Of a stretch of DNA of 64,000 nt, positions 5,300 through 40,025 are shown piece after piece. The notes beneath the pieces were generated by a model, which had not been told where the DNA came from, ran no database searches, and worked only from the letters and a program-made list of their open reading frames with translations. The DNA lies in contig NIVC01000522.1 of NCBI GenBank assembly GCA_002269645.1, positions 62,001-126,000 of the forward strand, read 5' to 3'. The number at the start of each line of letters is the position of its first letter. Within the stretch, counting starts at the first letter, position 1. Both the position numbers and the translations under genes were made by a program. Source of the stretch: Macrostomum lignano (lineage: Eukaryota).

Positions 5300-5770
5300 G
5301 CCACCCACCCCACGTCCCCACTCCGCCAAGACACCCACCCCACTCCCACTCCGCCAAGACACCCACCCCACTCCGCATAGACACCCTCCCCAATCCGCCT
5401 AGACACCCACCTCACTCCGCATAGACACCCACCCCACTCCCATAAGACACCCACCCCACTCCGCCAAGACACCCACCCCACTCCGCCAAGACACCTACCC
5501 CACTCCGCCTAGACACCCACCCCACTCCGCCTAGATACCCCCTCACTCCGCCTAGACACCCACCCCACTCCGCCTAGATACCCCTCACTCCGCCTAGACA
5601 CCCACCTCACTCCTCATAAACACCCACCCCACTCCGCCTAGACACCCACCCCACTCCACCTAGACACCCTCCCCACTCCGCCTAGACACCCACCCCACTC
5701 CGCCTAGACACCCACCCCACTCCGCCTAGACACCCACCCCACTCCGCCTAGACACCCACCCCACTCCACC
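5300..5770. repeat. 22-bp C-rich minisatellite (CCACTCCGCCTAGACACCCACC)
   Basis: Fills separase intron 2 up to the donor site. Confidence 0.9.
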
Positions 5771-5773
5771 TAC

Positions 5774-6344: not shown

Positions 6345-6365
6345 CTGCGAGCGATTCTCACAGGG

Positions 6366-9563
<3,198 letters not shown>

Positions 9564-17200: not shown

Positions 17201-17437
17201 CAAAGCCGTATAGAGAAAATAAAGCTTCCTGACTTTGTGCCGGACCATCAGCCAAGGACAACTTAAGTAGTAGAATTGGACGCTACACTCGAAATCCATG
17301 GTAAATGTTTTGAAGGCAACCTTTCGCCGAAAAATACACTACAGAGATAGGAGGTTTTAATTTTTTCAGCACAAATATTGTTATTGATTTTGATAAGGAG
17401 GCAGATCCAGTGTTCATCTTTTGATATGTTGTGCCTT

Positions 17438-18271
17438 ACTACGTATCGTGCAGATTGTTGTCGATTTTGGAGGTGAGGTGGGTGTCAGAGCCAATGGAAA
17501 TTCAACGCCTATCTAAATACATTAGACCTCTTCTAATTGGTCCAGACCCTGTAAGTCATTATGTGAGACATTTATGCATGTAACTCTCGTGTAAATCTAA
17601 TTATACATGTAATCAGTGTACACTGTGTCGTACAGAAGCGACGAGTACAATATAGTACGCATAATTAGCGCTTCACCGTAGCAGTTGTTGTACGCAGAAG
17701 CGCGCGCGCCCCCATCCCCACACAATGCAGCATTGGTGTACGCAGAATTAACTGTCCATATTAACTGTCCATATACCAAAAATTGGCAGAATTAACGTGC
17801 GCCGACCCACCTGATAACTGTCCATATTATTACTTGTCCATATTTACTGTCCATCCCAAAATTGGTGTACGCGCAGAATTGTAGCGCCCGCCCACCCCAT
17901 AGCTGTTCGATCATACCCAAAATTGATGTACGCGCAGAATTGTAGCGCCCGCCCACCCCATAGCTGTTCGATCATACCCAAAAGTGATGTACGCGCGGAA
18001 TTGTAGCGCCCACCCATCCAAGAAAATATTCTGTCGCCCCTCACAATTAATTGGCGGCGCCACGCGGAGGCATGATGAGTCAGCCGCTGTAAATCGCTGC
18101 TATCCACCCCTCTGCTGCAGCCTGTTATTTCCACTCACACCATTCTCCATCCCTCTAGAATTCTGTCCTCCGTAGCCACTCCGGGGCAATTACGCCATAC
18201 CCAACCCCTCCCTCAGAGCCAAATAAGTTTTCAAAAGGTGTATATATATTTACACAAAAAGCCGGCCGAGC
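17438..18271 (+). repeat. Left terminal inverted repeat (834 bp)
   Basis: Begins ACTACGTATCG. Reverse complement of 26709-27391 apart from about five substitutions and a roughly 150-bp expansion. Confidence 0.95.
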
Positions 18272-18287
18272 TTTGATACGTATATAC

Positions 18288-18761
18288 TTATTTAGCATAC
18301 ACAATTGGGTGACGACCCAAAACGATTGAATAATAGCGAGCAGGAGCATTTTGCAAACCCTTTGCAAACAGGTTTTGCACAAGATACCAAAGTCGGAACC
18401 CCACGTGGGAGACTTTGCGCGTGAAAAAAGTTGTAAAAGCGCCACTCTTTTCCATGGCATGCATTTGGTCATCGACGACAAGCAGAATATTTGGTTCAGG
18501 GACATATTGTTCAGGATCAAATGTACACGAACGAAAATTTACAGGGTACGGCAATTCAAACAGTTCAGGATCTGGATAGTGGCCAAACCACTCTACGCGA
18601 ATCGGCTTCGGATCTTGAAAAAACTCTTGTCTCAATAGGTTTTTCACAAGTGTGGTCTTGCCGCTTTGAGCCACCCCAGCAAAAATTGCCGACGTTTTGG
18701 GGGCAAATTTTAAAGAGTCGGGGTCTATTGTTTGATACATTTTGATAGGCTGCCCAATCAT
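18288..18761 (-). CDS. A32/FtsK-like DNA packaging ATPase, probably C-terminally truncated
   Basis: Walker A GVAQSGKT, Walker B LLVVDD and the LVQNLF motif. Only 157 aa, and the stop lies 17 bp from the inner edge of the TIR. Confidence 0.85.
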   Translation of the reverse strand: MIGQPIKMYQTIDPDSLKFAPKTSAIFAGVAQSGKTTLVKNLLRQEFFQDPKPIRVEWFGHYPDPELFELPYPVNFRSCTFDPEQYVPEPNILLVVDDQMHAMEKSGAFTTFFTRKVSHVGFRLWYLVQNLFAKGLQNAPARYYSIVLGRHPIVYAK

Positions 18762-18769
18762 GCATATAT

Positions 18770-19219
18770 TTATGGATGATGCTGCTTTATTTGTAGACAG
18801 TGATTCTGCACCATCAAGTCGTTCTCATAAAGATTTGTTCTATAACAGTCGCGCAATATTTTTTCAATTGACAGACCCTCCAGAAAGTGTTTTTCAGCCA
18901 CAAATATTACATTAGCCCCGCAGGTCACACTTAGCTGATGCTGTACAGGATGCCGGTTCATGGCCACCTCCGCGGAGACATACTTTGCGATCCACAACTT
19001 TAATAAATCTGGCACAGGATCGATACACAAGGGGTCAAAAAATGTCACGCTCTCATCGGCATGAAGACAAATTAAAGCCCAGTGAGTGCCTGGTAGATTG
19101 CCAGTGTCAAAGTTAATCACGTATGCAGCAGGATAAACAGGCTGCGGAATCCTGTCAACTGGTGTTAATCGAACAGGGACAGGTAGTAGTAGACGTTCTA
19201 ATATATCTAGACTATTCAT
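18770..19219 (-). CDS. Adenain/Ulp1-like cysteine protease (maturation protease), in frame with the major capsid protein
   Basis: Own ATG (MNSLDI), then INFDTGNLPGTHW (His), FFDP (Asp) and QHQLSVTCGA (Gln, Cys). Confidence 0.9.
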   Translation of the reverse strand: MNSLDILERLLLPVPVRLTPVDRIPQPVYPAAYVINFDTGNLPGTHWALICLHADESVTFFDPLCIDPVPDLLKLWIAKYVSAEVAMNRHPVQHQLSVTCGANVIFVAEKHFLEGLSIEKILRDCYRTNLYENDLMVQNHCLQIKQHHP

Positions 19220-19276
19220 ATTGGCATGAATATGGCCGTTATTCGGGAATAAAAAAAAAGATGTTTGTTTCTGCAC

Positions 19277-20554
19277 GTAGTCTAGAATAACCTGACGACC
19301 GCGAGTGATTTGCACAGTATTGTCAAAGTAGCCAAACACCAACACGTTGATTCCTGCGGCCAAGGCAGCAGAAAACTTTATTTGTAGCGTCAGATTCCCT
19401 CGCTCGCGAGGCATGCTATGCCCGCCCAGCTCCATGTCGGGCATGAGATTCCAGGCGAAGAAGCAGTAGCCAGCTCCATAGTCGGAATATGATACGTCAA
19501 TATCCAGGTCCCGATTCATCTTTCCTAGGCTTTTTAGTAGCATGGCATACTCGCGAGCATAGTTATAAACACCGAATCGAGGAGTAAACGGTTGTCCACA
19601 CAGACTGACTCCGTCCTTATACAGAGCGACACTGTCTGCCCCAAACGGTTCAAAATTAAACGGGTTATGTGTAGCCACACCGTTGTATGCGCCGCTGTTC
19701 ACCATGCCAACAACCACTAGTTTAGGCTTTTGTTCAGGAAATATATTATTGATTGACATGTCCCGAACACCGCCAGCCACTGAAGTATTGTACACAACAA
19801 GTCGCTCAATCGGATAGATTGCATTCTGTTTGCCTAGTTGTTCTTCAATCTCCAAAGCCAGTTGAGGGTTTGCCTTGACGCGGCGCACATGTAGTTTGGC
19901 ACTCTCGAGTACCAGCCGCGCATCAACCCCGTCCGCGTGGCTTTCCAGAACGAAGCCGGAATTGTGCATGGTCAGCGTAATTACCATATCAGTGTATGGC
20001 AGTAGCATTCGGTCGTTGGTAACAAAAAAGTCTAAACTAAGAGGTCCATAAAGGTGAAAGGTGCGTGAGTTTGCCGCCATCGCCTTGCGGGCTACAAAGC
20101 CAGGATTTCCAACCACAGCCATTTGACCTCCAGCGTCCTTTGCGTAGCCCATCATTCTCAGTTGGTTCGTTTTTGAATCGTGTCCGTAATTCAAACACGT
20201 GCGAATATAGGCCTTGTAAGCGTGGTTGTTATTGCTCGACTCTACGTGTGTCCCGTTGATTGTCAACGTGACGTTTTTAAACATGCTTTCAAGGACGTAA
20301 TTGACCGGCGCAACATTCGAATCAGCAGCAAGATTTGTGCCATTAGATTGCCTAACGCGGGCCTTAATCTCGAGGTCAATGTCGTTAAGATCGATAAACG
20401 TCTCACCACCAACAATCCTAAATTCGACCACGCTGGCATTTTCAACACTGGCAACAGGGTGAACTTCTTCAGTGGTGGCGCTAATTGCAGCAATTTGGTG
20501 TGCGCGAGGAGCAAATAGCTCGAATTCCGACTTTGTACACAGGCACTCAGTCAT
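19277..20554 (-). CDS. Polinton double jelly-roll major capsid protein (reads through into the protease)
   Basis: About 426 aa with Polinton-type MCP features: EFELF..., SVVEFRI, FIDLNDIDL, PVNYVLESMF, NPFNF, and C-terminal FDNTVQITRGRQVILDY. No stop before the protease. Confidence 0.85.
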
Positions 20555-20620
20555 TTTTCTTTCAACAGCGGCTTAGTGTGGTGCTCTAATAGACAGATCA
20601 GTTATTGGCACGGGTTTTTT

Positions 20621-20629
20621 TATTTATAG
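20621..20629 (-). promoter_or_regulatory. CTATAAATA box upstream of the major capsid gene
   Basis: One of six (C/T)TATAAATA boxes on the coding strand of the element; 67 nt before the ATG. Confidence 0.55.
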
Positions 20630-20965
20630 AGTCGAAAATATCAGAATGCTGCAGTCTTTTTCTCGTTTTTTGTTAGTCATCTTTCTTCGTCTTTGTCTGC
20701 CGCTACCTCGTTGTGCGACTGTGTCCTTGAAAGCATCTTTAGCTGCCTGGACAGAGTTACGCAATGCTGCTTCTTTCAAGTTCCCGCCTTGATCGAGTGT
20801 GTCGCTAACTGTTGTAGCTAGGGTTCGTGTTCCGTGGCGAAGAATATTTTTGCCAAAACTCTTTAAAATTGGCAGGGCAAATCGGGCAATGCTGCCAAAC
20901 AGGCCGTTGCCGCGCTGTGCACCGGAAAATACCGATAAACCTCCTCCGATCAAGATTGAAGGCAT
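20624..20965 (-). CDS. Small basic Polinton virion/core-like protein
   Basis: QRGNGLFGSIARFALPILK and QRGSG motifs, an amphipathic helix and an Arg/Lys-rich tail, typical of the small ORF found next to Polinton capsid genes. Confidence 0.65.
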   Translation of the reverse strand: MPSILIGGGLSVFSGAQRGNGLFGSIARFALPILKSFGKNILRHGTRTLATTVSDTLDQGGNLKEAALRNSVQAAKDAFKDTVAQRGSGRQRRRKMTNKKREKDCSILIFSTL

Positions 20966-21006
20966 ATTGTCAATCAGTTGCTACATTTTATTCGTGAAAA
21001 CTTCTT

Positions 21007-21015
21007 TATTTATAG
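21007..21015 (-). promoter_or_regulatory. CTATAAATA box upstream of the 113-aa core-like gene
   Basis: 42 nt before the ATG; overlaps the penton stop codon. Confidence 0.55.
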
Positions 21016-22163
21016 CTTAATTTCACGAATGTTGATCGATAAAACAGTTTTGCCTCGAAGAATCCGATCCATTAACTTGCCCATATCGTCACAGATTTGC
21101 ACCTCAATGGTTTTGAATGGGTGTTTCACCAACGGTAAGTAGGATGGATTGACAAACTCGTAGTACTCTCGTTCGCCGTATACCTTTTCATTCAAAGGAA
21201 TTGCCCCAAGCAGGGGGACTTTGACGTCTCCAACAATGGCAGAGTCGACAATATTTGAATAGATTACATAGTTTGTACACCATTTGTTAAATCGATTGGT
21301 CGTTTAGCGGTCTTTGGAGTTTCATTGAAAACATCTTCGCGAAAGCCGAGAATGGCAGCAAGCTCTCCAATGTCGAATAAAATGTTTTCAATTGGTTTGT
21401 ACTCACACCGGTTCAGAAAAGGGTTGTAGCGGAATGCATCCACTCTCGTCGCTGGACTTATTGGGAGCTTTGAAACGACGCCCCAAAGCGCTCCATTAAC
21501 ATAATTTAAGAGCTCATCGGGCGTGCGGTAGAATCCTTTAGCAATCCGCAGTGACGTTCTAGAAGGCCAGACACTCTTTTCAAACGTTAGAGTCATCGGA
21601 CTCTCTATGGAGGAGGAGGACTCCAATTCTATAGCGAATACTAACGAATTTCTTGGGTTTAATAAAAAAGTCGTTACTTCGATATTTGATTTATTTCCAG
21701 CGTCATCAACTTTTTAAAACATGCTACGCACATTACTGGACAGCCTAATGTTCGCACCATACCATGATTTGTTCACAATTGAAATTTGGCCTTCCTGTGA
21801 ACGCTCAATGCAAATCATCGCATTATCGTCTTGCTCATATTTTAGAGCGGCGATGATTGCATCAACCACTTCGTTGGCTGTTGATAGCCCCGCGGCGAGA
21901 GAAACCGACGCAAACTGTTTATACGTGGAGGCGGGTTTTTCTCTCACCTCAATGTCAATCACTTCATCCTCGGGAGCGTTGGTCAGGACATCAACCATTC
22001 GATTATCGGGGACGGTTTTGAATTCTTTACAAAAGTAGATCCGTTCGATGCAGACTTCATGATTCGGAAAGTGGAGGGTGTCGGGCAAATTAATGCTATA
22101 ATGTGCCGAATTATTCTCAGGATAGTGCTCAACGCACGCATTGCTAGGTAGGAATAGATGCAT
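21010..22163 (-). pseudogene. Minor capsid protein (penton, single jelly-roll), disrupted
   Basis: N-terminal LFLPSNA..YPEN..LP and C-terminal IVGDVKVPLL..P.Y.P..F.TIEVQI.D..G motifs. In-frame TAA at 21716-21714 and a 1-nt frameshift near 21265 (ATG TA- ATC TAT). Confidence 0.8.
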
Positions 22164-22197
22164 TGTAATATACTACACGTTTCGAGTGTATGTGTGT

Positions 22198-23250
22198 TCA
22201 TCCTTGTCTTATATTTATAACTTCCTCAACTGGTACAAATGCATTGAACGACTCGGGATAGCCGCGCCAACTAACGAAACGATGAGCAACACCATTGATG
22301 ACGACATTGCGACGCAGAATTTTGTCTATAACAAAGCGGTCCGGTCGAACCGTCTTTGAAAGTTCATTATAGTAGAATCGACCCTCGATTTGTTCTCCAG
22401 ATAGGTCGGAAATGCGATAAAAATGAGGCGGTCCTGGGCATACTTGAGACACAACGTAAACTTCTTCGCTGTACATATCGTATGCTTCCTTGTCAAAGGC
22501 TCGACGAGATTTTGAAATTCTGACAAAGTCCCCTTTTTGGTAAACTGGTTCATCATATTCAGGATCCTTGTAGAGTTTTTCCCACAATTCTTTTTGATTG
22601 TGCAGACCGACACTCGAAGGTTTCATATCAATAGTAGAGTGTACTGTGTTGTTGTAACTTTTAACCAATATTGGCAAATAGTCGATCCAACGCCACGCGT
22701 TTTTATGCTCAAAGTAGCGAGCTAAACGTTTTCGGAGAGTCCTAATCAGCCTTTCAGAGTTTGTACTGTACATTTTGATATTATGGGCTTTCAGTAAGTT
22801 CTACATGCGATTTTTATAAAACTCTGTACCTCGATCAACGTGTAGATATAAAGGCTTAATGGGGAAGTCTTTGATCATGCTTTCAAAAGCCTTTGGAGTG
22901 TCGCTTTTCAATTTTATTGGCTGGCAAAAAGCCAATTTGCTAAGCACGTCAATTGCAACTAGAATATATCGATGACCATCATTCCATTGTTCGTATCGCG
23001 ACATGTCCATCAAATCCGCTTGCACGGTTTCCATGAAGCCTCCCGACATTACTTTTCCGGTTCGGAATTTTCTTTTAACCCTCTTGTGCCGGGTGTAGCT
23101 CGATTGGGTCTTCAGCCATTCGTCGGTTTGGTGTCTCGTCAGGGAGGGGACCAGCCGTTTGGCCTCCTGATATACACGGGCAGCATTTGTAAAAGCGGCG
23201 TCCCCCTGTTCGTACACTCTCCGAAGAGCGGTTTTCACCCTCATTCGCAA
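22198..23250 (-). pseudogene. Retroviral-type (RVE) integrase with C-terminal chromodomain, disrupted
   Basis: QADL and AIDVLSK (D), VDRGTEF (D), SERLIRTL (E), YNNTVHSTI and a chromodomain (VSWRGYPESFNAFV). In-frame TAG at 22803-22801 and an apparent deletion of about 7 codons before the ER motif. Confidence 0.9.
22212..22220 (-). promoter_or_regulatory. TTATAAATA box upstream of the penton gene
   Basis: 49 nt before the ATG, inside the end of the integrase ORF. Confidence 0.5.
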
Positions 23251-23378
23251 CTAGAGTCGATGCACAGCATGAGTAATTACACTTGAACTCCACAGACGGT
23301 TTGTCTGAGCAAAGCTTTGAAGTTACAGCTGCAGCACCCATGATCCAAAAACAGATTATATATCATGAAAATGATTTC

Positions 23379-23387
23379 TATTTATAG
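23379..23387 (-). promoter_or_regulatory. CTATAAATA box upstream of the integrase
   Basis: Overlaps the stop of the upstream ORF; 129 nt before the integrase ATG. Confidence 0.45.
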
Positions 23388-24060
23388 TTTTTTTAACGTC
23401 TCGTATTTTACTGCTGGTTTCTGCCGCCTCTTTGGTTCGCGAAGTTGGTATGAAGCATGCCTGTAGGCATCGCTGCCACGATCTTCATATTTTTTGATTT
23501 CATTCAGGCCACTGGCTTGGTCTTTGTGGAAGTCGTTGTAGAAATCATTAGTTCCAATTGCTTGCTCGACTAAAAAATCGTCTCGATCCGGATCCGTGCC
23601 GACTTCTTTTTTCACACTGACTTCTTCTTGTTGGCGTCGTCCTAGTAGAGCTTTTGCAATATCTGCCTCTTCGGCCAGGGCCCAAAAAGCGGTACTATAT
23701 TTTGGGCTTGGGCGGTCGCGCCTTTCATTCGATGTAATCTCCTTCAGTAGATCGAAAATATTGCTTCCTGGCCAGGTTTTTCCATCAAATACAATTTCCC
23801 ACGACTTGTTGTACTCCAAATTTGGGGTATGGATTTTCTGTCAGCATGTCCCAAACACGTTGTTGTCGTTCAGGAAAACGATTACTCTTCTTTTGCTTGA
23901 TCTGACTTAGTTTATTTTGGAGTTGAGTGTTGTATTCAATGAGTTTTTCATATTCTGTTTTGGATGCAATTTCTCGGGGTGCGCCTTGACTTAGTCTATT
24001 AAATTCTTCTTCTGGTACAACAACGTATTTATTCATTTTAGCGACCGAGTAGTCCGCCAA
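23382..24060 (-). pseudogene. Conserved Polinton uncharacterised protein, split by a frameshift
   Basis: The MNKYVVVPEEEF N-terminus (23785-24060) and WEIVFDGKTWPGSNIFDLL (23382-23819) lie in overlapping frames that switch around CCCCAAATTT near 23820. Confidence 0.6.
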
Positions 24061-24277
24061 ACAGGCTTGATATTAGCGGTGCAGCAACAGATGCAAGGAT
24101 GGGTAGAAAGCCACCGACTTGAGGATTCGAGAGAAGCATATTCTTCTTCCTATTTATAGACAATTTTGTGTCTGCCAATTCACGCAACGATCTTCTGTAT
24201 CGCTTTAATCGCAGATACTGTTTCGGAGAAAGATCGATATTATAGACAATTTCATAGCAGCTTGTACGTACATACAA
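24038..24277 (-). CDS. Small protein with a pX-like GG^FLP amphipathic C-terminus
   Basis: Basic N-terminal half followed by QVGGFLPILASVAAPLISSLFGG, resembling the adenain-cleaved C-terminus of adenovirus pX. Confidence 0.6.
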   Translation of the reverse strand: MYVRTSCYEIVYNIDLSPKQYLRLKRYRRSLRELADTKLSINRKKNMLLSNPQVGGFLPILASVAAPLISSLFGGLLGR

Positions 24278-24324
24278 ATTCGGTACAGTGGTAAAGCAGT
24301 AAAGTTACGCAACAGCTACATGGA

Positions 24325-24804
24325 TTAGACATGCAAAACGCTAGTCACATGATCGTACATTTGACAGAGCTCTTTAAAGTTTCGTATTCCAAGGAAAACA
24401 AGGCGGCCATTCTTTCCGCATAATAAACATTTAGCATTGCGAAATGGAGACTTTATTACTATTCCATTGAAAACTTCGCACTCCCACTTCACCCAGCGGG
24501 ACCCGGAGTATGCAATTTGGAAAAAGTTTGGCCATCTGTCTACTTCAGCGCGGTAAGTACTAGTGGTAACAACAACAGAAATTGGTTTACATTGAGGAAA
24601 AAGACGCAAAACTTGGTTGACTGAGCGACAACCGAATACAATTGCAGACAAAGAGCGCTGAAAAAAGTTGATTGTACATTTTCCTATTCGCAAATTGATA
24701 AGAGCTCTTCGTCTGCGAAATGTCCGTGCGCTCGCCCAGTCCAAGTCAGGCATGCGGCTCCATTTCGCGCAAAACACTCGGTTCACACACTCGACGTTCT
24801 GCAA
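24325..24804 (-). CDS. Divergent TATA-binding protein (TBP)-like protein encoded by the element
   Basis: Manual alignment to the TBP core: N.V.........DL spacing; LRI..CTINFF...[39 protein letters not shown] aligns without gaps to [48 protein letters not shown]..VL matches SGKIVLTGAK..EI.Q.FE.I..VL. The ORF starts at TTG, not ATG. Confidence 0.8.
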   Translation of the reverse strand: [159 protein letters not shown]

Positions 24805-25535
24805 GTAGATTTTTCGGCAGTTTTTACTTTCGTATCCTTCTTGGGGGCTTTCGACCGCTTCTTTGATTCGTTGGCTGCTACTAGTTTCGATTGATGCTGT
24901 CGCTTTCTGGCCTGATTTTTAGGCACCTTTGGCAGCTTCTCCTTGACAAGCTTTGGTGGTTTCTTTGCTTTCTTGCTTACTTTCTTGGTGCCTACCTTGA
25001 TTTTTGGAGGTGGCGTCCAATAGCAACGATCAAATGCCTGTTTGGCTTCTTCGACAAACTGTAGCTGTTGAATTTTTGGCATTGCGGTCAAAACAGCGTC
25101 TCGAATCACGGCCGTGTCGAGAGTAAACAGAATCCTGTAGTAGCCGCTCTTGTTTTTGTAATCCTCTACAGGCAGTCCGTTTTGGTCGTACATTTTAAAG
25201 TCGTGAGCCAGCCCAAACGCTGCACTGTCACCTCCAAACGCTGGGTTGTAGCCCAGCAGAGCTAGACTTTCGCTGGAAAGGTGCTCCGCCACAGTGTTGA
25301 AAGTGTAGGGTATGCAGCTTTCAATGTGTTTTTGTGCAATGATGATGAATTCGCGACCTTCGTTGTCAGTACGCACGCCCTTGACGATCAAAACAGGGAC
25401 CGCATTGGCCAAGTAGAGAGGTCCCTGTTCGTCATATTCAATGTCAAACGTTTCAACCCCGTTGAAGCTCGGACCTCGCGGTTTGAGTGCCAGCAGCTCT
25501 CGCTTGACGCAGTTGAAGTCTTGCACTGTCTCCAT
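24783..25535 (-). CDS. Hypothetical protein, possible OB-fold ssDNA-binding protein with a Lys-rich tail
   Basis: Intact 250-aa ORF with an upstream TATATAAG. The beta-rich segment FKMYDQNG..GYYRILFTL..PKIQQLQF only loosely resembles viral gp2.5-like SSBs. Confidence 0.55.
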   Translation of the reverse strand: METVQDFNCVKRELLALKPRGPSFNGVETFDIEYDEQGPLYLANAVPVLIVKGVRTDNEGREFIIIAQKHIESCIPYTFNTVAEHLSSESLALLGYNPAFGGDSAAFGLAHDFKMYDQNGLPVEDYKNKSGYYRILFTLDTAVIRDAVLTAMPKIQQLQFVEEAKQAFDRCYWTPPPKIKVGTKKVSKKAKKPPKLVKEKLPKVPKNQARKRQHQSKLVAANESKKRSKAPKKDTKVKTAEKSTCRTSSV

Positions 25536-25550
25536 GTCTCTTGTCTGTTT

Positions 25551-26499
25551 AGAAAAATTTGCAGGTACGGGCGCTTGCAGATGCTCCGGGCTGGTGCTTA
25601 TATACCCGAGAGTCTCAATAAGTTTTTGTTTTAATTACACGATAACGAGCTTTTCACAGAGTTGTCGTTATCGAGGATTCCGGAAAAAATGAACCTTTTG
25701 TTCCTATTTTCGGGTGCTGGCGTTGGAGGTGTGCTGAAATCCTTGCTCCAAGTTGCTGGTAGTTCAAGCTTTGGCGGCCTGTTCCTCTTGTGCTTTGGCA
25801 GCCAAAAATTCCAAATCTTTTGTTGCTCCTCCCACGACGGATTATACAGATCTTGATGGTTCCGAAAACGTATTTTTTGGCGATGCTCCTCACTTAGTAT
25901 CGGAGCCAGTAATCTCTCCATTCGTGCTAAATCAGCTTTGAACCTCATTTTGTCCCGTAGTTGCTCATTTATCCTGGCTGCTGCGTAGTCTTGGCTGTCG
26001 TAGGGGCCTTGATCAATTTCCTCGACCTTGGCATTGAAGGTGACTAATCGCTCGGAAATCGGTTTGCTGTGGCAAATGCACAACCAGTCAGCAGATTTTT
26101 TCAAGGCCTCATATTCGTCTTTTTCCTCGTTCGAAAATAGGGGGTAGTCTCTGGAAATCCAGCTCATTTCTTGTCAAGCACTGCTGCGTTGTTCGCACTA
26201 GTGGTGGGGATGTTATTCGAGCTTGAAAAACTGCCGAGAATCCGAGAAAAATTTGCAGGTACGGGTGCTTGGTGCCCCGGGTTGGTGCTTATATACCCGA
26301 GAGTCTCAATAAGTTTTTGTTTTAATTACATGTTAACGAGCTTTTTACGGTGTTGTCGTTATCGAGGATTCCAGAAAAAATGAGCCTTTTGTACCTATTT
26401 TCGGTGCTGGCGTTGGAGGTGTGCTGAAATCCTTGCTCCAAGTTGTTGCCAGTTCATGCTTTGGCGGTCTGTCCTCTTGTGCTTTGGCAACCAAAAATT
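25551..26499 (-). repeat. Internal direct duplication of about 255 bp (25551-25810 and 26245-26499) carrying a TATATAAG box
   Basis: Both copies share GAAAAATTTGCAGGTACGGG...GGTGCTTATATACCCGAGAGTCTCAATAAG...CCAAAAATT. Confidence 0.9.
25631..26167 (-). CDS. Hypothetical 178-aa protein of the element
   Basis: ATG-initiated ORF, co-oriented with the other genes, upstream TATATAAG. A degenerate copy of its 3' end lies at 26245-26499. Confidence 0.55.
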   Translation of the reverse strand: MSWISRDYPLFSNEEKDEYEALKKSADWLCICHSKPISERLVTFNAKVEEIDQGPYDSQDYAAARINEQLRDKMRFKADLARMERLLAPILSEEHRQKIRFRNHQDLYNPSWEEQQKIWNFWLPKHKRNRPPKLELPATWSKDFSTPPTPAPENRNKRFIFSGILDNDNSVKSSLSCN

Positions 26500-26708
26500 G
26501 CTTGTCAAACACTGCGTTTTCCACATGATTGGGGTGTTAATTGAACTAGGTGAATTTAGATAAACGGCCGAGAATCCAAATTTTCTTATTTATAGTTTGC
26601 TGTCTGAACAAAATTGGTTTGGCATCTTGTTAAACGAGAATATTTCATGCATAGAAGTTTGTGTTTTCAGACCTTGATGACGTGTCTGACTATAAAGTTA
26701 GCATTGTG

Positions 26709-27391
26709 GCTCGGCCGGCTTTTTGTGTAAATATATATACACCTTTTGAAAACTTATTTGGCTCTGGGGGAGGGGTTGGGTATGACGTAATTGCCCCGGA
26801 GTGGCTACGGAGGACAGAATTCTAGAGGGATGGAGAATGGTGTGAGTGGAAATAACAGGCTGCAGCAGAGGGGTGGATAGCAGCGATTTACAGCGGCTGA
26901 CTCATCATGCCTCCGCGTGGGGCCGCCAATTTTGTGGGGGTCACAGACAATTCTGTGCGTACACCAATTTTGGGATGGACAGTAAATATGGACAAGTAAT
27001 AATATGGACAGTTATCGGGTGGGTCGGCGCACGTTAATTCTGCCAATTTTTGGTATATGGACAGTTAATATGGACAGTTAATTCTGCGTACACCAATGCT
27101 GCATTGTGTGGGGATGGGGGCGCGCGCGCTTCTGCGTACAACAACTGCTACGGTGAAGCGCTAATTATGCGTACTATATTGTACTCGTCGCTTCTGTACG
27201 ACACAGTGTACACTGATTACATGTATAATTAGATTTACACGAGAGTTACATGCATAAATGTCTCACATAATGACTTACAGGGTCTGGACCAATTAGAAGA
27301 GGTCTAATGTATTTAGATAGGCGTTGAATTTCCATTGGCTCTGACACCCACCTCACCTCCAAAATCGACAACAATCTGCACGATACGTAGT
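26709..27391 (-). repeat. Right terminal inverted repeat (683 bp)
   Basis: Ends CGATACGTAGT and is followed by the TSD TGCCTT. Confidence 0.95.
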
Positions 27392-29598
27392 TGCCTTTCT
27401 TATTGCTCTATCGATATTCATAAAGCTTTTCGTTCAGAAATAGTTTTTAAGGCAGGTTTCACCGGAAAAATACACTACGGAAATAGGAAATTTCACGATT
27501 TTCAACACTAAAACAGTGATTGGGTCTCTTAACAGTGTCAGAGAAAGTTCTAATCACACTATTTTGTGCCTCACATGCTGCTCTAACGACGCATTCATCG
27601 ATTTTTCAAGTTAAATTGGTCTGTCACTTGAAAAAAAATGTTTAAAATAATGACAAGGACAACTTGTTACTTGAGTATAGTCCTTGCCATCAGCTTTCGT
27701 GACTTTGTGCCGGATAGCTGTAAAAATTGCTTATGTCTCTCAGCCGTAAAAATTGCCTCCGCGGTAAAGCCACTGTGGTTTTTGCGCGCTTTTGCCTGTG
27801 CGCGCTTATTTCCACACTTGCCAAAAAATACACATGCGCGCTTGTGCCTGTGCGCGCTTATTCAGCCCTCACTGTACGCGCTCGTACATCTATACAGGCA
27901 GGAGAGACTGGCAGAAGCCGTCGCTTTTACAGTTTACGTAAAATATCAATTTTGTAAATTAATGATACTTTTTAGAAGCTTTTGAACAATAGTTTATTTA
28001 TAAGGGGCCAGCGGAAGCGCCTAGCTGCAAGCAAGTCGGCAATGAAGCACTCAGTCAGAATGCCAAGCCTAGGCAACGGCACTGCAGTTCAGTCGATGCA
28101 CATGCATTCAGCACAGCCAAGAGGTTCGGATCGGAGGCAGTGGCCCAGCTGTATCTGCATGGTCGACGGCGCCGGCGTAGAGTAGCGCTCATCAGGGGCG
28201 GCGCTCCAACGCGGGCCATGAGAGGGCGTTGGTCGGCGTTCAGGCGAGGCTTATATTCAATTTCCTTTGGATGTAATCGATGTATATGTTTCATATTCAA
28301 TTATGTACTGATGATAATATGATCTGGAACTGCATGTAGACATGTATATGTGTACATGTAGTTATATATGCTGCTGCAACATGGGAGGAAACGACTTTAA
28401 AGGGACATCTACATACGTGTAAGAGAAATTGTTATCAACTGTAATACATGTACGCTATTAGGAACCTTAAATTACTCGCTGAAGATGGCATGTACATGTA
28501 TGCACAAGATGTGCTCGTTCTCAGCATTGACTGGGTACTGTACATGTACGTCTTTCAGAAACCTCGAAATGAGTCTCTAAATCAACCACAGGCATTTCTC
28601 AGGTACACTTTAACAGGAATTTCGTGGGCGTGCTAGCTGCTGTCTGTGTTTTGTCCGAGCTGAATTCGATTCATTTTTCAAGCTGAGGTTTTCATGAAAT
28701 GCTTTCCGCGGAGACGGGGGCAAGTAAAAGGAAGGCTAGTATGAAGCGAGCATTTCAGCTAGTTTTAGCCAAGGTCACGAGTGTGCGTCGTCATATCATA
28801 TTAGCCGCATTGATTGAAATGTCTATGGCTGAAACAGGCGGTCATTGCCGTGAAGTGACATTTCGATCACTAATAATAAAGTTCCGCCGAATCTTCAGCC
28901 GTTCCTGTCCCCTGTAATGTACTTTTCTATACTTGGCAGCATTTTCTCCACCAGAAGTAGTCTATGGCCAAAAGCCTAAACAGTGAATCTTTGCAAAATC
29001 CGTTTTAGAGAACGCTGCCACCATTCAATAATAGCCAATAATTTTTAAAATTTTACGTGGCTCCAATTCAGAAAGTAATTATAGAAAGGTGTGATGGATT
29101 TCGTCAACTTGGTCCAAACAACATTGTGCAGGGACCGTTAATATATAACTGTGCAAAGAGCAATGTCGAATATATTTAATATTTAATGTACCCCAGGACG
29201 AAAATAGATCTTCTGCTAAATATTTATCATCGAAATAATTATCAGCTTGACAGAGAATTAAAAGCATTGATATTAAAATAAAATCAATATCTAATTTTTC
29301 CAAGACGATAATTAAGCGTAATTAGTTTAATCAGATAATTTAAATTGCATTGTCAACTTCACGACTTGCGCCTGGAACTATAAATTTTAACGCATTTTTA
29401 GACCTCTTATAGGGCAGCAAAGGCTGTTTTAATAAGTCTTTGTCGCGTAAGTACTTGTGTAGGTTGTCAAAACACACTTGTATAGCTAAGCTGTACAAGC
29501 TACATGTAAAACAACTGGGCATCAGAGTATAGCTCTTGTTACACGAATAAGAACTAACGGGAGAGAGGGTAAAGAGGGCCTGCGATGCCCCCTAGATA

Positions 29599-32789: not shown

Positions 32790-32989
32790 CTGCAATTTAT
32801 AGGGGCGTGCGGAACCTCTTTAGTAAGTTTCCGGCTGCAAGACTAAGAATTTTTAACAATTAAAATAGTCATCATTGAGAATCAAGAATAAAAAATAAAC
32901 ACTGAAAATCAGAATCAACAAACTGACTATTGAGCATGCAAAAAAATTACTGACAAAAATTCTGCGATATAAAGCTTCAAGCAGAAATC

Positions 32990-34118
32990 CACAATAAACA
33001 ATCCACAATCCATAATCCGCAATCCACAATGCACAATCCACAATCCACAATCCACAATCCACAATCCACAATCCACAATCCACAATCCACAATCGACCAT
33101 CGACAATCCACAATCGACAATCGGCAATCCACAATCCACAATACAATACACAATCCACAATCCACAATCGACAATCGACAATCCACAATCGACAATCGGC
33201 AATCCACAATCGACAATCTACAATCCACATCCACAATCCGCAATCGACAATCGACAATCCGCAATCGACAATCCACAATCGACAATCGACAATCGGCAAT
33301 CCACAATCGACAATCTACAATCCACAATCCACAATCCGCAATCGACAATCGACAATCCACAATCGACAATCGGCAATCCACAATCCAGAATCTACAATCC
33401 ACATCCACAATCCGCAATCGACAATCGACAATCCGCAATCGACAATCCACAATCGACAATCGACAATCGGCAATCCACAATCGACAATCCGCAATCGACA
33501 ATCCGCAATCGACAATCCGCAATCGACAATCCGCAATCAACAATCCACAATCGACAATCCACAATCGACAATCGGCAATCCACAATCGACAATCTACAAT
33601 CCACATCCACAATCCGCAATCGACAATCGACAATCCGCAATCGACAATCCACAATCGACAATCGACAATCGGCAATCCACAATCGACAATCTACAATCCA
33701 CAATCCACAATCCGCAATCGACAATCGACAATCCACAATCGACAATCGGCAATCCACAATCCAGAATCTACAATCCACATCCACAATCCGCAATCGACAA
33801 TCGACAATCCGCAATCGACAATCCACAATCGACAATCGACAATCGGCAATCCACAATCGACAATCCGCAATCGACAATCCGCAATCGACAATCCGCAATC
33901 GACAATCCGCAATCAACAATCCACAATCCACAATCGACAATCGACAATCGGCAATCCACAATCGACAATCTACAATCCACAATCCACAATCCGCAATCGA
34001 CAATCGACAATCCACAATCGACAATCGGCAATCCACAATCCACAATCCACAATCCACAATCCACAATCCACAATCCACAATCCACAATCCACAATCCACA
34101 ATCCACAATCGACCATCG
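32990..34118. repeat. 7-bp repeat (ACAATCC/ACAATCG)
   Basis: Source of the HNPQSTI/IVDCGLW pseudo-ORFs. Confidence 0.92.
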
Positions 34119-34145
34119 ACATGTGTCGGTGGACGCCAGTCTCAC

Positions 34146-34490
34146 CTGTGCGCGATCTCCTCCAGCGTCGAGTGCGCCACTGTGGCTGGTCGCACTGGCG
34201 GGCTGCTCAGCAGGGAGGGCATTGTCCGTCTGCGTCGGCCGCCGCGTCCCAGCTGTCCGGAGCCGCTGACTTCGCTCAGCCCGCTGTCCGAGTCGCCAGC
34301 CCGAGGCCCGGCCGCTCCTCCGACGTTCGCGGCGCCTCTGCCGCCGCCCCCGGCGCCACCGCCTCTGCCGCTTGCGTTGCCGCCTCCACCGCCGCTATTG
34401 TTGGGCGAGGCCGTAGATTCTTCGAAAGAGGAGTCGCGCCCGATGCCGCTGTCCCGCTTTCGACGGGTGCCGCCGTTGTGGCCGAGGGTT
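34146..34490 (-). CDS. JPH: Junctophilin exon 6
   Basis: GC-rich frame (TLGHNGG...MPSL...EEIAH); AG/GT bounded, phase 2/2. Confidence 0.72.
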
Positions 34491-34659
34491 CTGGATGGTA
34501 GAGGATAAAAATCTTGCATATTGTTGAAAATTCTTGGAAATTTCACAAGGAAATTGCGATGAACCCAGCAAAAACTGCGCTGATATTCTTGAGACATCAT
34601 TCGGAAATCCTCCTGGATGTTGAGAAAAACCCGTTGCAAATCAACAGGAAATCCCTTCG

Positions 34660-35060
34660 GAAATCACGTCGGAAATCCTGTCGGGAATCTCCAGGTAATC
34701 CCATCGGTAGTTTTCAGGGAATCTCAATTGAAATCCCACAGGGAATTCCAACGAAAACCCACATGGAGTCTCATCGGAAATCCCATTGGAAACCCCATCG
34801 AAAATATCATCGGAAATCCCATCGGAAATTTTCAGGAAATCCCCTCTGAAATCCCTGGGAAATCCCACCAGAAATCTCCAGGAAATCGCATCAAAAATTT
34901 ACGGAATCCCATCGGAAATTCTCATGAAATCCCATTGGAAATTCCCAGGAAATCCCATCGGGAATCCCCAGGAAATCCCATCGGAAATTCCCATGAAATC
35001 CCATCAAAAATCCCCAGGAAATCCCATCGGAAATCCCCAGGAAATCCCATCAGAAATCTC
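34660..35060. repeat. Degenerate GGAAATCCC(ATC) repeat
   Basis: Fills junctophilin intron 5. Confidence 0.8.
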
Positions 35061-35100
35061 TAGGAAGCACCATCAATGAATCATCAAACAAAGCGCTCAC

Positions 35101-35459
35101 CTGTACTGATCGAAATGATCGCTAGCCGGGGCGCCGCCGCTGCCACCGCTGAGAATTTGTGCCAGCGGTTCAACTCTATCAGTTGAATAAGCTGGCTGCG
35201 ACATCTGCTGCTGCTGCTGCTGCTGAAGCTGCTGGCGTCTCAGCTGAGGGTTCTGAGCAGCTGCAGGGGCTGCCTGCAGCCGGGTGACAACTTCGTTGAC
35301 ATCAGGACCAGCTGGCGCAGCCGAAGATGGCGCACCTGCGGCCTGTTGAACCGTCGGGTTCTGGCTGATGGGAGGCGCTTCTCCGCCGCCACCGCCGCCT
35401 CCGCCGCTGCCGCGTCGGACCGCCCGAAAGCTGCCGCGTCGACTGCCGCCTCCACCGAC
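35101..35459 (-). CDS. JPH: Junctophilin exon 5 (low-complexity divergent region)
   Basis: GC-rich, Gly/Ala/Gln-rich frame ending DHFDQY; AG/GT bounded, phase 0/2. Confidence 0.75.
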
Positions 35460-36217
35460 CTGAATTTGAATTTTAGCGCACCTTTTCTTAGAAAGCATTT
35501 TCCTTAAAAGACACTTCATTGATAAAATTAAACAAAAATTAACAATTGTGATTTTTTAATTTTTCTTATTTTGTCGAAACTCTTTTACTGATAACTTTAA
35601 CATTATTTTGTTTTAAATATTTGTTTTTCTCAAATCATTCTCGCAATTGTTGTCATCTCTAACTAGACTCTAACTAAGTGTCAGAATTTCAAAAAAAAGA
35701 ATTACTACTTGCTATCAGTAGCTTAAGTAGTAACAATGCACCAATTTATCCTGTAAAAAAGACAAAAGGAAAATGCAGGGACAATAAACTGGGGTTTTTG
35801 GTTGCAGCATTGAAACTACCTGCTCCATTATCAATCGATGCTTTGGTTTCCCCCGGTTACTCTGCACCGACATGGAATTTCTTGTCTTAAGAGACTTGCA
35901 ATTGTCGCTCTTCTTCTAGAAGATAGCAGACTTCCGTACGCAGTTCCAGTAGGTTTTCTGTCATCCCGACCTTGTGAGAGTCTTTCTCTCTCCTCCGCTC
36001 TCACTCGCTCCTTTTATGGTTATAGAATGAGGAGATGTGGAATCAATAAGTTGATGAGGCCCCACAAAAGCCAGCGCCAAGGATGCTTGTGAGGCCTGCC
36101 AGAATGCGGCTGAGTCTGCAGGGGCAGCAGCCGCGGACAGGAAGGGAAGGAATGGGTCTGCTCAGCTGGGACTGATGGCTGCACTAGACTCAGGGGCTGT
36201 GAGCTAACCAATTCCTT

Positions 36218-37172
36218 CTTCACGATCCCTCATTCATAATCCCTCATTCACGATCCCTTATTAACGATCCCTTCTTCACGATCCCTCATTCACGATCCCT
36301 CATTCACGATCCCTCCTTCACGATCCCTCATTCACGATCCCTCCTTCACGATCCCTCATTCACGATCCCTCATTCACGATCCCTCCTTCACGATCCCTCA
36401 TTCACGATCCCTCTTTCACGATCCCTCCTTCACGATCCCTCATTCACGATCCCTCATTCACGATCCCTCATTCACGATCCTCCCTCATTCACGATCCCTC
36501 ATTCACGATCCCTCATTCACGATCCCTCATTCACGATCCCTCATTCACAATCCCTCATTCACGATCCCTCCTTCACGATCCCTCATTCACGATCCCTCAT
36601 TCACGATCCCTCCTTCACGATCCCTCATTCACGATCCCTCATTCACGATCCCTCCTTCACGATCCCTCATTCACGATCCCTCTTTCACGATCCCTCCTTC
36701 ACGATCCCTCATTCACGATCCCTCATTCACGATCCCTCATTCACGATCCTCCCTCATTCACGATCCCTCATTCACGATCCCTCATTCACGATCCCTCATT
36801 CACGATCCCTCATTCACAATCCCTCATTCACGATCCCTCCTTCACGATCCCTCATTCACGATCCCTCTTTCACGATCCCTTATTCACGATCCCTCATTCA
36901 CGATCCCTCCTTCACGATCCCTCATTCACGATCCCTCCTTCACGATCCCTCATTCACAATCCCTCATTCACGATCCCTCATTCACGATCCCTCCTTCACG
37001 ATCCCTCATTCACGATCCCTCCTTCACGATCCCTCATTCACAATCCCTCATTCACGATCCCTCATTCACAATCCCTCATTCACGACCCCTCATTCACGAT
37101 CCCTCATTCACGATCCCTCATTCACGATCCCTCATTCAAAATCCCTCATTCACGATCCCTCATTCACGATCC
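36218..37172. repeat. 14-bp minisatellite (ATTCACGATCCCTC)
   Basis: Tandem units with an internal block duplication. Confidence 0.92.
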
Positions 37173-37509
37173 CTTGTTTACTCTCTTCTTCACTCCCAAT
37201 TAGTCCCATTCTCTTTCACTCATTCGCTCAATATTTGCGCAATAATGGATGTCAGTTCCTGCCTCAGCAAAACTAATTAGCAAATGCAACATGAAAATCT
37301 TGTGAAGGATTTTTTGTTTAACTAAAGGCCTTTTTTCAATCAGCTGTTTCTTGGAAAAGCAGTCAAATGAATTGAAATTCTAGGCTTTAAGACACAATAT
37401 ACTTCCTAGTCTTTGAGGATAAACTGATTTTCAGAGAAAATATGAAATCTTTTAAAGAAATTAAAATCGACTTCTAGGAGTCAAGCTCTGTCCTTATTTC
37501 CGTACTTTC

Positions 37510-38855
37510 CGAATTCTCCTGAATTCCCCAAACTCTCCTAAATTCCCTCGACCTCACCTGAATTCCCTCAAACTCTTCAGAATTTCCCCAAGTTCTACTG
37601 AATTCCCCCAAGCTCTCCTGAATTCCCCCAAGCTCTCTTGAATTCCCCCAAGCTCTCCTGAATTCCCCCAAGCTCTCCTGAATTCCCCCAAGCTCTCCTG
37701 AATTCCCCCAAGCTCTCCTGAATTCCCCCAAGCTCTCCTGAATTCCCCCCAGCTCTCTTGAATTCCCCCAAGCTCTCCTGAATTCCCCCAAGCTCTCCTG
37801 AATTCCCCCAAGCTCTCTTGAATTCCCCCAAGCTCTCCTGAATTCCCCCAAGCTCTCTTGAATTCCCCCAAGCTCTCCTGAATTCCCCCAAGCTCTCCTG
37901 AATTCCTCTAAAATCTCCAGAAGTCTCCAAGCTCTCCTGAATTCCCCCAAGCTCTCCTGAATTCCCCCAAGCTCTCTTGAATTCCCCCAAGCTCTCCTGA
38001 ATTCCCCCAAGCTCTCCTGAATTCCCCTGAAATCTCCAGAAGTCTCCAAGCTCTCCTGAATTCCCCCAAGCTCTCTTGAATTCCCCCAAGCTCTCTTGAA
38101 TTCCCCCAAGCTCTCTTGAATTCCCCCAAGCTCTCCTGAATTCCCCCAAGCTCTCCAGAATTCCCCCAAGCTCTCCAGTATTCCCCCAAACTCTCCAGAA
38201 TTCCCTAAAATCTCCAGAAGTCTCCAAGCTCTCTTGAATTCCCCCAAGCTCTCCTGAATTCCCTAAGATTTCCTTAATTCCCGCAAGATCTCCTGAATTC
38301 CCCCAAGATCTCCTTAATTCCTTCAAGCTCTCCTGAATTCCCCAAAGCTCTCCTGAATTCCCCCAAGCTCTCCTGAATTCCCCCAAGCTCTCCTGAATTC
38401 CCCCAAGCTCTCCTGAGTTCCCCCAAGATCTCCTGAATTCCCCCAAGCTCTCCTGAGTTCCCCCAAGATCTCCTGAATTCCCCCAAGCTCTCCTGAATTC
38501 CCCCAAGATCTCCTTAATTCCCCCAAGATCTCCTTAATTCCCCCAAGCTCTCCTGAATTCCCTAAGATTTCCTTAATTCCCGCAAGATCTCCTGAATTCC
38601 CCCAAGATCTCTTTAATTCCTTCAAGCTCTCCTGAATTCCCCAAAGCTCTCCTGAATTCCCCCAAGCTCTCCTGAATTCCCCCAAGCTCTCCTGAATTCC
38701 CCCAAGCTCTCCTGAGTTCCCCCAAGATCTCCTGAATTCCCCCAAGCTCTCCTGAGTTCCCCCAAGATCTCCTGAATTCCCCCAAGCTCTCCTGAATTCC
38801 CCCAAGATCTCCTGAATTCCCCCAAGATCTCCTGAATTCCTTCAAGCTCTTCTGA
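37510..38855. repeat. 20-bp minisatellite (GAATTCCCCCAAGCTCTCCT)
   Basis: An EcoRI site in each unit; source of the GEFRRAWGNS pseudo-ORFs. Confidence 0.92.
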
Positions 38856-39519
38856 AAAATCAGAATTCCTCAGATTTTTCTGAATTTCTTGAATTAACTA
38901 CCAGTAAGTCTGTTATCTGCACTATCTGGAATCCTTCCCATGCACTCCTTCGCACATCTTCCCCATTCCAAAATCTTTGCCAAAGATCTCATTAAAAATT
39001 GCAAAAAATAAGTTGAGCAAACAAATCCAAAAGTCACGTAGCTGTGAGCAGACAAGGAGATGAAGTCCAACTCCATCAACCCCCTTCACCCAATGCCAAT
39101 CTCAATTCACGCAGTAGTTCGACTTTGACCGAGAACAGCCTCGGACTCCGACAGGGGTCCTGGCATAGCAACCAGCCTGAGCACACGGCCTGACACTTTT
39201 TTATCGACTCTAACGAAGCTCGGGCCGAGTCTATATGAGCCGGGATTTAGCTCAAATATTGAATTAGGCATAACTCTGTTTGACTGGCTCTGATCCCCAT
39301 ATTTGACGTCGACCCCCCACCCCCCAGCCGCGTGGGTGGGTGGGCGGTTCTCTCAGTCTCAATCGCACAGCATTTAACAAATGGAGAGCTGCGCTAGACT
39401 CTGCGAGAAGAGGGACCCAGTGTGCACTTTGATTTTTGAGTGGAGTTATTCTCCAAGTACTCCACCAATACCGTTATTAATCCGTTCTCTTATTCACTCT
39501 ATTTTCACTCCTGACACCG

Positions 39520-40025
39520 TTTCTTATTGTCACTCCGTCATTCTATCATTTCACTCTGGAACTCTCTCCCATTATCACTCCGTCACTCTCTCATAATGTC
39601 ACTCCGTCACTCTCATATTGGCACTCCATCACTCTCTGTCTTATATTGTCACCCCCGTCACTTTCTGTCTCATATTGTCACTCCGTCACTCTCATATATT
39701 GTCACTCCGTCACTCTCATATTGTCACTCCGTCACTCTCTTATATTATCACTCCGTCACTCTCATATATTGTCACTCCGTCACTCTCATATTATCACTCC
39801 GTCACTCTCTTATATTGTCACTCTGTCACTCTCATATTGTCACTCCGTCACTCTCTATCTTATATTGTCATCCCGTAACTCTCTGTCTCATATTGTCACT
39901 CAGTCACTCTCATATTATCATTCCGTCACTCTCTTATATTGTCACTCCGTCACTCTCTTATATTGTCACTCCGTCACTCTCATATTGTCGCTCCGCCCCT
40001 CTCTATCTCATATTGTCACTCCATT
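39520..40025. repeat. 22-25-bp minisatellite (TCACTCCGTCACTCTCATATTG)
   Basis: Tandem degenerate units. Confidence 0.85.

Follow-up and report, generated by a model that had tools for sequence, protein, structure and literature searches.

The window, i.e., the entire 64,000-nucleotide stretch of Macrostomum lignano DNA analyzed here, harbors a mobile element of ~10 kb at positions 17438-27391. The element is bounded by a left terminal inverted repeat (17438..18271) that starts with ACTAC and a right one (26709..27391) that ends with GTAGT; their arms are 100% complementary over 445 nt, and the target-site duplication TGCCTT flanks them at 17432-17437 and 27392-27397. Polintons generate target-site duplications of 6 bp. 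In the host part of the window, many tandem arrays (3793-8014, 32895-39600, 42243-42907, 48089-49681 and 53225-63811) with repeat units 8-41 nt long account for a large share of the sequence and create spurious ORFs.

For the genes of the element, we refer to two sets of elements in the same genome: subfamilies A and B, which carry relatives of the gene under study, and a second, pPolB-bearing Polinton family termed C. The minus strand of the window element encodes a putative FtsK/A32-type packaging ATPase (18288..18761) with a visible Walker A motif, shortened in this copy and 30% identical to the family C ATPase, itself a weak Pox_A32 match below the cut-off. A putative major capsid protein and a likewise putative adenain-like protease (ATG at 19219) form one continuous frame in the window copy (18770..20554, minus strand). 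The capsid label is our assumption from gene order; the gene has no Pfam match and shows 27-30% identity to the gene at the same position in family C. The H-D-Q-C motifs of the protease were recognized by eye, its relatives match Pfam C48/C5 weakly and below the cut-off, and comparison with the pPolB-bearing family C gave no match. The gene map adds a putative core-protein gene (20624-20965) and a putative minor capsid gene in three pieces (21010-22163), both on the minus strand and with labels that we presume from position and motif. An RVE integrase with a chromo-like C-terminus (22198..23244, minus strand) is split by an in-frame stop in the window copy; the Pfam rve score amounts to 21.8 bits for the window piece and to 38.1 bits, above the cut-off, for a subfamily B copy. 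Further along the same strand, 23382..24304 holds a 228-aa ORF, broken into two pieces, and the 5'-truncated remainder of a gene that we take to be PX/gasdermin-like, both labels being our own assumption. At the far side of the element, a conserved 178-aa frame, ORF1 (25631..26167, minus strand), evolves with a dN/dS of 0.16, and its surroundings are partly duplicated at 26245-26499.

Several genes are broken in the window copy. Short-read contigs compared with window positions 18760-26181 display small insertions and deletions at several places, and some of the breaks may therefore be assembly errors or differences between copies. We also observed a Cys-rich ORF of 88-92 aa on the minus strand (23341-23075) that is conserved in A and B, overlaps the integrase start and lies 43-45 nt behind a promoter box of the type described below; its MGAAA start is presumably a possible myristoylation site.

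The gene under study lies between the 228-aa ORF region and a longer upstream gene, ORF2. Its frame runs from 24804 to 24325 on the minus strand and contains 159 codons, the first of which is TTG rather than ATG. The coding exon itself (24325..24798, minus strand) comprises 157 codons and a stop and encodes a TATA-binding protein (TBP) fold with two repeats, an assignment carried by profile, model and selection. The surrounding open frame extends to 24918, and an ATG-initiated ORF would span 142 aa only, starting at 24753. Taken alone, the window protein has no Pfam match and no sequence match in the PDB. All five relatives submitted to the Pfam scan, however, match PF00352 as the sole family, at 24.6, 22.8, 18.1, 16.4 and 14.1 bits, with one of the five above the 22.9-bit cut-off and four below it. 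When a profile of the A/B family was run against PDB sequences, TBPs took the first 35 of 38 places (best E 1.3e-5, repeat 2 only), and comparison of the profile with an alignment of host and family C TBPs yields 88% probability, again confined to repeat 2. Repeat 1 finds no TBP match in these profile comparisons.

The frame is far from unique to this copy. Among 96 candidates in the host genome, 89 match, and these fall into the two subfamilies, with protein identities to the window TBP of 94-99% (A) and 77% (B). Outside this genome, relatives with 37-67% identity occur in four records; a fifth match, P0006, was left out as repetitive sequence. The ESM Atlas offered no usable match for the TBP or the ORF2 domain, and IMG/VR contained no relative of either the A/B TBP or ORF2, the four IMG/VR loci found being matched by the family C/host TBP alignment.

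Structure prediction offers a greater level of detail. The AlphaFold model was built from the A/B family alignment, which contained no known TBP, and reached a pLDDT of 79.7; it displays ten strands in TBP order. Foldseek returned 44 matches at E<=0.001, all of those listed being TBP entries (TM 0.68-0.78, E down to 1e-8), and the next non-TBP entry followed at E 0.019. In the structural alignment, TBP matched with Z 14.3 and rmsd 3.3 over 157 of 159 residues, and the best non-TBP fold, a rolling-circle initiator, reached Z 7.0. Giant-virus TBPs lead the viral structural matches, followed by the poxvirus early factor and the herpesvirus proteins BcRF1 and UL87. The proposal of the sequence-only reading that the ORF covers the whole two-repeat TBP core is thus borne out across both repeats, and we regard it as virtually certain that the gene is a TBP homologue.

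The residue-level claims of that reading fared well with one exception. The acidic stirrup is kept: the yeast counterparts of E108, E110 and F112 are E186, E188 and F190 (by the offset of the family profile against the PDB), and these three window residues, together with R39, T44 and F48, are invariant in 9/9 aligned rows, four of which are near-identical A copies. Two of the four DNA-intercalating Phe equivalents, F48 and F112, are retained and the other two positions lack Phe, as had been described; besides F190, we take the yeast residues to be F99, F116 and F207. Helix H2 of repeat 1 is indeed reduced, being ~13 residues shorter than in host TBP and a 7-residue helix in the model, and H1 is barely helical. 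The proposed register of strand 1 did not hold, as the conserved Asn aligns to N8 (CVNRV) and not to the LQNV motif. In TBP, H2 forms the binding surface for TFIIA, TAF1, Brf1 and Mot1. TFIIB is bound by the stirrup, according to a passage of PMC12529657 in which the residues are numbered E184 and E188.

Compared with cellular TBP and TRF and archaeal TBP (PF00352), the protein resembles them in its two-repeat saddle, its acidic stirrup and its equivalents of F116 and F190, and it differs in its 15-21% identity, two missing Phe, short H2, lack of an own start codon and location in a mobile element. It shares the TBP fold by homology but is no canonical TBP, and repeat 2 is its better conserved half.

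The exon evolves under strong constraint. Between A and B, dN/dS is 0.08 over 157 codons at a dS of about 1.8, with values of 0.069 for repeat 1 and 0.091 for repeat 2, and the 15 codons preceding the first Met of subfamily A likewise give 0.08; in shifted frames, the selection signal is lost. A recent, decaying host TBP retrocopy or a chance ORF, which the ATG-less frame start and the missing direct Pfam match of the window protein might suggest, can be given hardly any credence: the dN/dS at this dS, an identity to host TBP of only 15%, the 89 genomic matches and the relatives in four outside records refute both. In a 19-row tree, the A/B TBPs group at 95/91 on a long branch of their own, apart from host TBP, and the tree does not resolve the origin of this group, including a shared origin with giant-virus TBPs. 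The host TBP and its TRF-like paralogue are intron-free in the core, each being present on three contigs (L021-L030, L061-L062), and TFIIB-family exons occur three to four times in the host genome.

The sequence-only reading had placed the gene in a Polinton-like virus. Like Polintons, Mavericks and adintoviruses, the element combines terminal inverted repeats, a 6-bp duplication and an RVE integrase with putative genes for a packaging ATPase, an adenain-like protease and capsid proteins, and to this extent the placement stands. It differs from them in lacking pPolB, in its length, in encoding a TBP and a probable single-stranded-DNA-binding protein (SSB), and in its family-specific boxes. Since Polintons are defined by a length of 15-20 kb and the presence of pPolB in a passage of PMC4028283, we assign the element to a Polinton-derived, polymerase-less family. 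pPolB was absent from the window element and from all three other copies read between both repeats. Terminal-repeat pairs enclose the TBP gene in 40 of 45 cases (22/26 in A, 18/19 in B), with median lengths of 10.1 kb and 10.5 kb, a few pairs being longer (11.9-14.3 kb). The outermost 25-30 bases of the repeats vary among A/B copies and match at both ends of each copy, and a motif just inside them is common to the copies.

Both subfamilies, about 1.8 dS apart, thus have ~10-kb elements that lack pPolB and retain the integrase and virion genes. Many subfamily B copies have identical TBP scores, suggesting that they spread recently by means of a polymerase provided in trans. Subfamily B additionally carries a Fic/DOC-domain gene (53 bits) adjoining the terminal repeat (L038:6922-7698), and a 117-aa ORF (L038:6534-6884) behind a TATAAATA box that is not an ORF in the window. 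A PC4 identity of this ORF was rejected, as it rested on a 28-residue match with a pairwise E of 0.008 and no Pfam match.

Two further kinds of element resemble the window element at their ends. An 18-kb element (L064/L065, G000:C1486:305546-323780) has the same terminal 23 bases and contains broken pPolB pieces and a satellite array; it encodes no TBP, ORF2 or window-like gene and is possibly a helper lineage or a second segment. Elements of 7.6 kb with the A-type repeat motif occur on G000:C356 (L066) and also on C816 and C1588. The one that was read has long internal inverted arms in common with L064 and no ORF of 100 aa, and is a non-coding derivative. A bipartite genome made up of A/B elements and a same-ended partner is a speculative idea.

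Upstream of the TBP exon, ORF2 (24783..25535, minus strand; dN/dS 0.084) consists of a 180-aa conserved domain and a Lys-rich tail that overlaps the TBP frame. Its predicted structure is of low confidence (pLDDT 40). The best of 48,161 chains in the fold search was T7 gp2.5 (Z 3.8, rmsd 4.8, 105 aligned), followed by Enc34 SSB, DUF2815, ASFV CP312R and LEF-3, and the viral matches were giant-virus proteins including ranavirus P31K, all of these scores being within the chance range. Passages of two papers describe P31K as an SSB (PMC8734342) and gp2.5-like SSBs from giant viruses (PMC4889955). The gp2.5-like family had been guessed from a motif ahead of the fold searches. One PHROGs SSB family was found at E 0.55 with 1/8 ORF2 members, and PF10927 (DUF2738) returned nothing in the genome, nor in the controls. 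Taken together, motif and model make ORF2 a likely, still putative, gp2.5-like single-stranded-DNA-binding protein.

No ATG of the TBP frame is common to A and B, and the subfamily B TBP contains no Met until residue 150. The A/B similarity begins at TTGCAG|AAC, which holds the sole YTNCAG common to both subfamilies in about 1 kb. This conserved TTGCAG (24799..24804, minus strand) is a predicted splice acceptor that fits the host trans-splice motif, and its TTG is an alternative non-AUG start. A predicted splice donor, AAG|GTAGGC (24990..24998, minus strand), follows codon 180 of ORF2; it is the sole AG|GTRNG in the ~1-kb stretch that is common to A and B. Donor and acceptor are both in phase 0 and would delimit an intron at 24995-24799, 197 nt long in the window; the spacer measures 196-206 nt across A copies and 67 nt in subfamily B. 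In five full-length outside relatives, the conserved part of ORF2 likewise ends in Ile-Lys-Val, after which comes Arg or Cys instead of the Gly of A/B. As judged from their proteins, these relatives would have a G at donor position +5, and the tails of their ORF2 proteins would correspond to the TBP exon translated in a different frame, the acceptor being represented by Ile-Ala-Glu or Ile-Ser-Glu.

A passage of PMC8629364 gives the published Macrostomum lignano spliced-leader sequence and the host acceptor motif YTNCAG, and one in PMC9851317 states that the AUG ending a flatworm spliced leader can act as initiator. The host genome contains 58 exact copies of part of the AUG-ended leader, and the reversed control gave 0. 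If joined at the acceptor, the leader AUG would be in frame with the TBP exon. Judged from these motifs, the TBP could quite conceivably be made by trans-splicing to the host spliced leader, which would supply the in-frame AUG. Cis-splicing to ORF2 codon 180, yielding a predicted SSB-TBP fusion, is a more doubtful option, and translation starting at TTG would be rather unlikely.

Several observations temper the splicing models. The exact A/B blocks at the splice sites measure 14-15 nt, and several other A/B blocks are as long. The donor GTAGG differs from the host GTRAG motif by one base, and the end of ORF2 conservation may be a plain domain end. Longer, fused TBP forms were absent among 8000 candidates, which is weak evidence. 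Contigs from four sequencing runs, three of them presumed to be RNA, list no joint at the predicted intron, and no spliced-leader end appears among 17/27 loose contig ends listed; those of X1, X10 and X17 are unspliced across the acceptor, and X6 has a gap at 24779-24795. Such contigs drop rare forms and may be DNA, so they carry no information on this point. Two other starts were rejected. A programmed frameshift from ORF2 into TBP is out because the two frames are not offset in the same way in all copies (intron length modulo 3 equals 1 in some and 2 in others), and the internal ATG at 24753 is excluded by the lack of a Met at this position in subfamily B and by the selection acting on the 15 codons upstream of it.

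The boxes flagged in the sequence-only reading (CTATAAATA) proved real when counted. On the coding strand, TATAAATA occurs 6 times in A and 7 times in B, compared with 0.13-0.16 expected (0/200 shuffles each), and on the non-coding strand of A and B, it occurs 0 times. The boxes precede most structural genes in A/B, mostly 26-74 nt before ORF starts. In the window, all on the minus strand, they lie at 20621..20628 (74 nt before the putative major capsid gene), 21007..21014 (49 nt before the putative core-protein gene), 22212..22219 (56 nt before the putative minor capsid gene), 23379..23386 (45 nt before a small ORF and 142 nt before the integrase), 24151..24158 (122 nt before the 228-aa ORF) and 26587..26594 (near the right end; in B, 39 nt before the 117-aa ORF). 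A variant, TACAAATA, stands before the ATPase (18788..18795, minus strand), also in B, and a second one at 19379-19386 (minus strand) lies 167 nt before the protease ATG. ORF2, by comparison, is preceded by a canonical TATA box, TATATAAG (25597..25604, minus strand), 69 nt upstream (55 nt in B), a candidate early promoter of ORF2 and TBP.

A second Polinton family offers a comparison. In the Pfam TBP search of the genome, 150 of 330 candidates were scored, all above the cut-off; 12 rows represent host TBP and the TRF-like gene, and all ten other loci that were read belong to family C; on 7 contigs, the coordinates place pPolB next to them. Family C (L047, L063, L048-L056) is a pPolB-bearing Polinton with >100 TBP-domain matches. 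Its genes include a TBP (81.6 bits), a PC4 coactivator-domain gene (31.8 bits) and a 278-aa ORF overlapping the TBP start. In family C, the TBP gene stands on its own and starts with an ATG; its product shares 18% identity with the A/B TBP. In two diverged C subfamilies, TTAAGAA occurs 9 and 7 times versus 0.7-0.8 expected (0/200 shuffles each) and TATAAATA 0 and 0 times, the reverse of A and B, where TTAAGAA occurs 0 and 1 times. In the two C subfamilies, TTAAGAA is found 38-64 nt upstream of the starts of the integrase, ATPase, PX, minor capsid or TBP genes, and the first gene of the family (PC4) is behind a canonical TATA. The host TATA consensus is TATAWAWR, and because TTAAGAA misfits it, this box is probably read by something other than host TBP. 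We take its TTAAG to resemble the baculovirus late motif.

This reciprocal pattern of TBPs and boxes is the best evidence for a promoter-reading role, although it comes from two families only, and it lends indirect support to the proposal that the protein acts as a promoter factor. On these sequence patterns, we consider it moderately likely that the gene product would serve as a late-promoter factor specific to the element and would rely on host TFIIB and Pol II. Transcription of ORF2 and of the TBP exon would come first, driven by host TBP at the canonical TATATAAG box, and the TBP would be made by splicing onto the acceptor at 24798 or, less likely, from the TTG start. The viral TBP would then bind YTA(T/C)AAATA boxes, recruit host TFIIB and Pol II via its stirrup and escape control by H2-binding cofactors. 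The outcome would be an early-to-late switch for a Polinton, with the capsid genes turned on by the element itself.

Several points weigh against a late-promoter factor. TATAAATA fits what we take to be the host TATA-box consensus and would itself serve as a TATA box for host TBP, which means that the boxes of A/B, taken alone, need no viral TBP. The distance to the next ATG is 120-170 nt for some boxes, and others are located within genes. The family C TBP gene sits behind TTAAGAA in 8/8 loci (73-82 nt, inside upstream coding sequence), unlike a simple early gene. Finally, with two Phe lost and repeat 1 lacking a sequence-level TBP match, DNA binding may be weak or absent.

A rival reading is a decoy, which would bind TFIIB or Brf-type factors via the stirrup and dampen host transcription or defense, reading no promoters. 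The invariance of E108, E110 and F112 despite the loss of two Phe and of a large part of H2, and the better conservation of repeat 2, are in line with such a role. It is nevertheless improbable, as R39, T44, F48 and F112 on the concave face are invariant as well, repeat 1 is as constrained as repeat 2, and the family-specific boxes are left unexplained.

A little less probable still are two further roles. The TBP fold, as a partner of the SSB or fused to it, could bind origin or terminal-repeat DNA instead of promoters, a replication role hinted at by the overlap with the probable gp2.5-like SSB gene and its in-phase donor, by the missing pPolB and by the rolling-circle initiator as best non-TBP fold match. 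The TFIIB stirrup would then be needless, however, and the TBP of family C stands alone with its own ATG, with the ORF2 profile finding nothing in the C loci scanned. Comparably remote is a booster function, in which host TBP reads the boxes and the viral TBP helps where host TBP is limiting or repressed, leaving specificity unchanged. The presumed fit of TATAAATA to the host consensus, and the presence of this 8-mer in an AT-rich host part of the window, with 4 copies on one strand and 3 on the other, agree with such a function; TTAAGAA in family C and TACAAATA before the ATPase in A and B, being non-canonical, do not.

Returning to the late-promoter factor, a broader reading would join it to the other features of the element. 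Each animal Polinton family would pair its own TBP with its own box (TATAAATA in A/B, TTAAGAA in C) for a self-encoded late program. The start-less A/B TBP would be spliced to the leader AUG or to the gp2.5-like SSB, the fusion tying late transcription to single-stranded replicating DNA, and the element would be a polymerase-less segment or satellite relying on a separate, same-ended element that carries pPolB. As a whole, we regard this combination as speculative and rather doubtful.

Viral TBP mimics are established in giant viruses and in beta/gamma-herpesviruses. Giant-virus and mirusvirus TBPs (Heterosigma virus, EsV-1-53, asfarvirus B263R, the TBP-like domain of the poxvirus early factor), which include the top viral structural matches, are likewise diverged TBP folds. 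Giant viruses mostly encode their own RNA polymerase and TFIIB, whereas the window element is a 10-kb element lacking both and must therefore work with host Pol II. The late factor of beta/gamma-herpesviruses (KSHV ORF24, BcRF1, UL87), a TBP mimic that steers host Pol II to virus-specific late boxes, would have the same role as the one proposed here, and the structural matches to BcRF1 and UL87 are weak (E about 0.006). KSHV ORF24 acts in a six-protein complex and has an extra Pol II-binding domain, whereas the window protein is a bare 157-aa core with the stirrup kept. According to a passage of PMC12529657, the acidic stirrup residues are missing from ORF24, and the prediction is that TFIIB is excluded. 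We recognized no herpesvirus-type pre-initiation partner genes in the window element, which may still work alike. As for the gene layout, adenovirus L4-22K/L4-33K is similar: there, a single ORF is either translated from unspliced RNA or joined by splicing to a second frame, and the resulting late regulators share an N-terminus. Here, the second exon is a TBP and the splicing is only predicted.

To our knowledge, the standard gene set of Polintons and adintoviruses contains no transcription factor. The earlier statement that TBP is absent from the canonical set holds in that TBP is not a standard gene; it needs qualification in that one MELD-virus figure legend, in a section on non-animal datasets and with the element unspecified, already bears a TBP label, the only mention of TBP in that main text (PMC8502044). 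One supplement of the same paper does not mention TBP, and PMC11161782 has no TATA or TBP passage. Beyond this legend, we found no paper on a Polinton TBP or promoter box, in a search that left RepBase, most subscription journals, figures and several supplements outside. A TBP in a Polinton-type element alone is thus not unprecedented; new are the two TBP/box pairs in one host, the start-less TBP gene and the polymerase-less carrier.

If true, a TBP with a cognate box would equip these elements to switch from early to late genes as herpesviruses and giant viruses do, and this would argue for a real lytic-type program. Reliance of a viral gene on the AUG of a host spliced leader would itself be out of the ordinary, as would a fusion of SSB and TBP. 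With two diverged TBPs and two boxes in one laboratory-type host, specificity can be tested directly in vitro, and the A/B and C TBPs offer a natural experiment on the residues that set DNA specificity and cofactor dependence.
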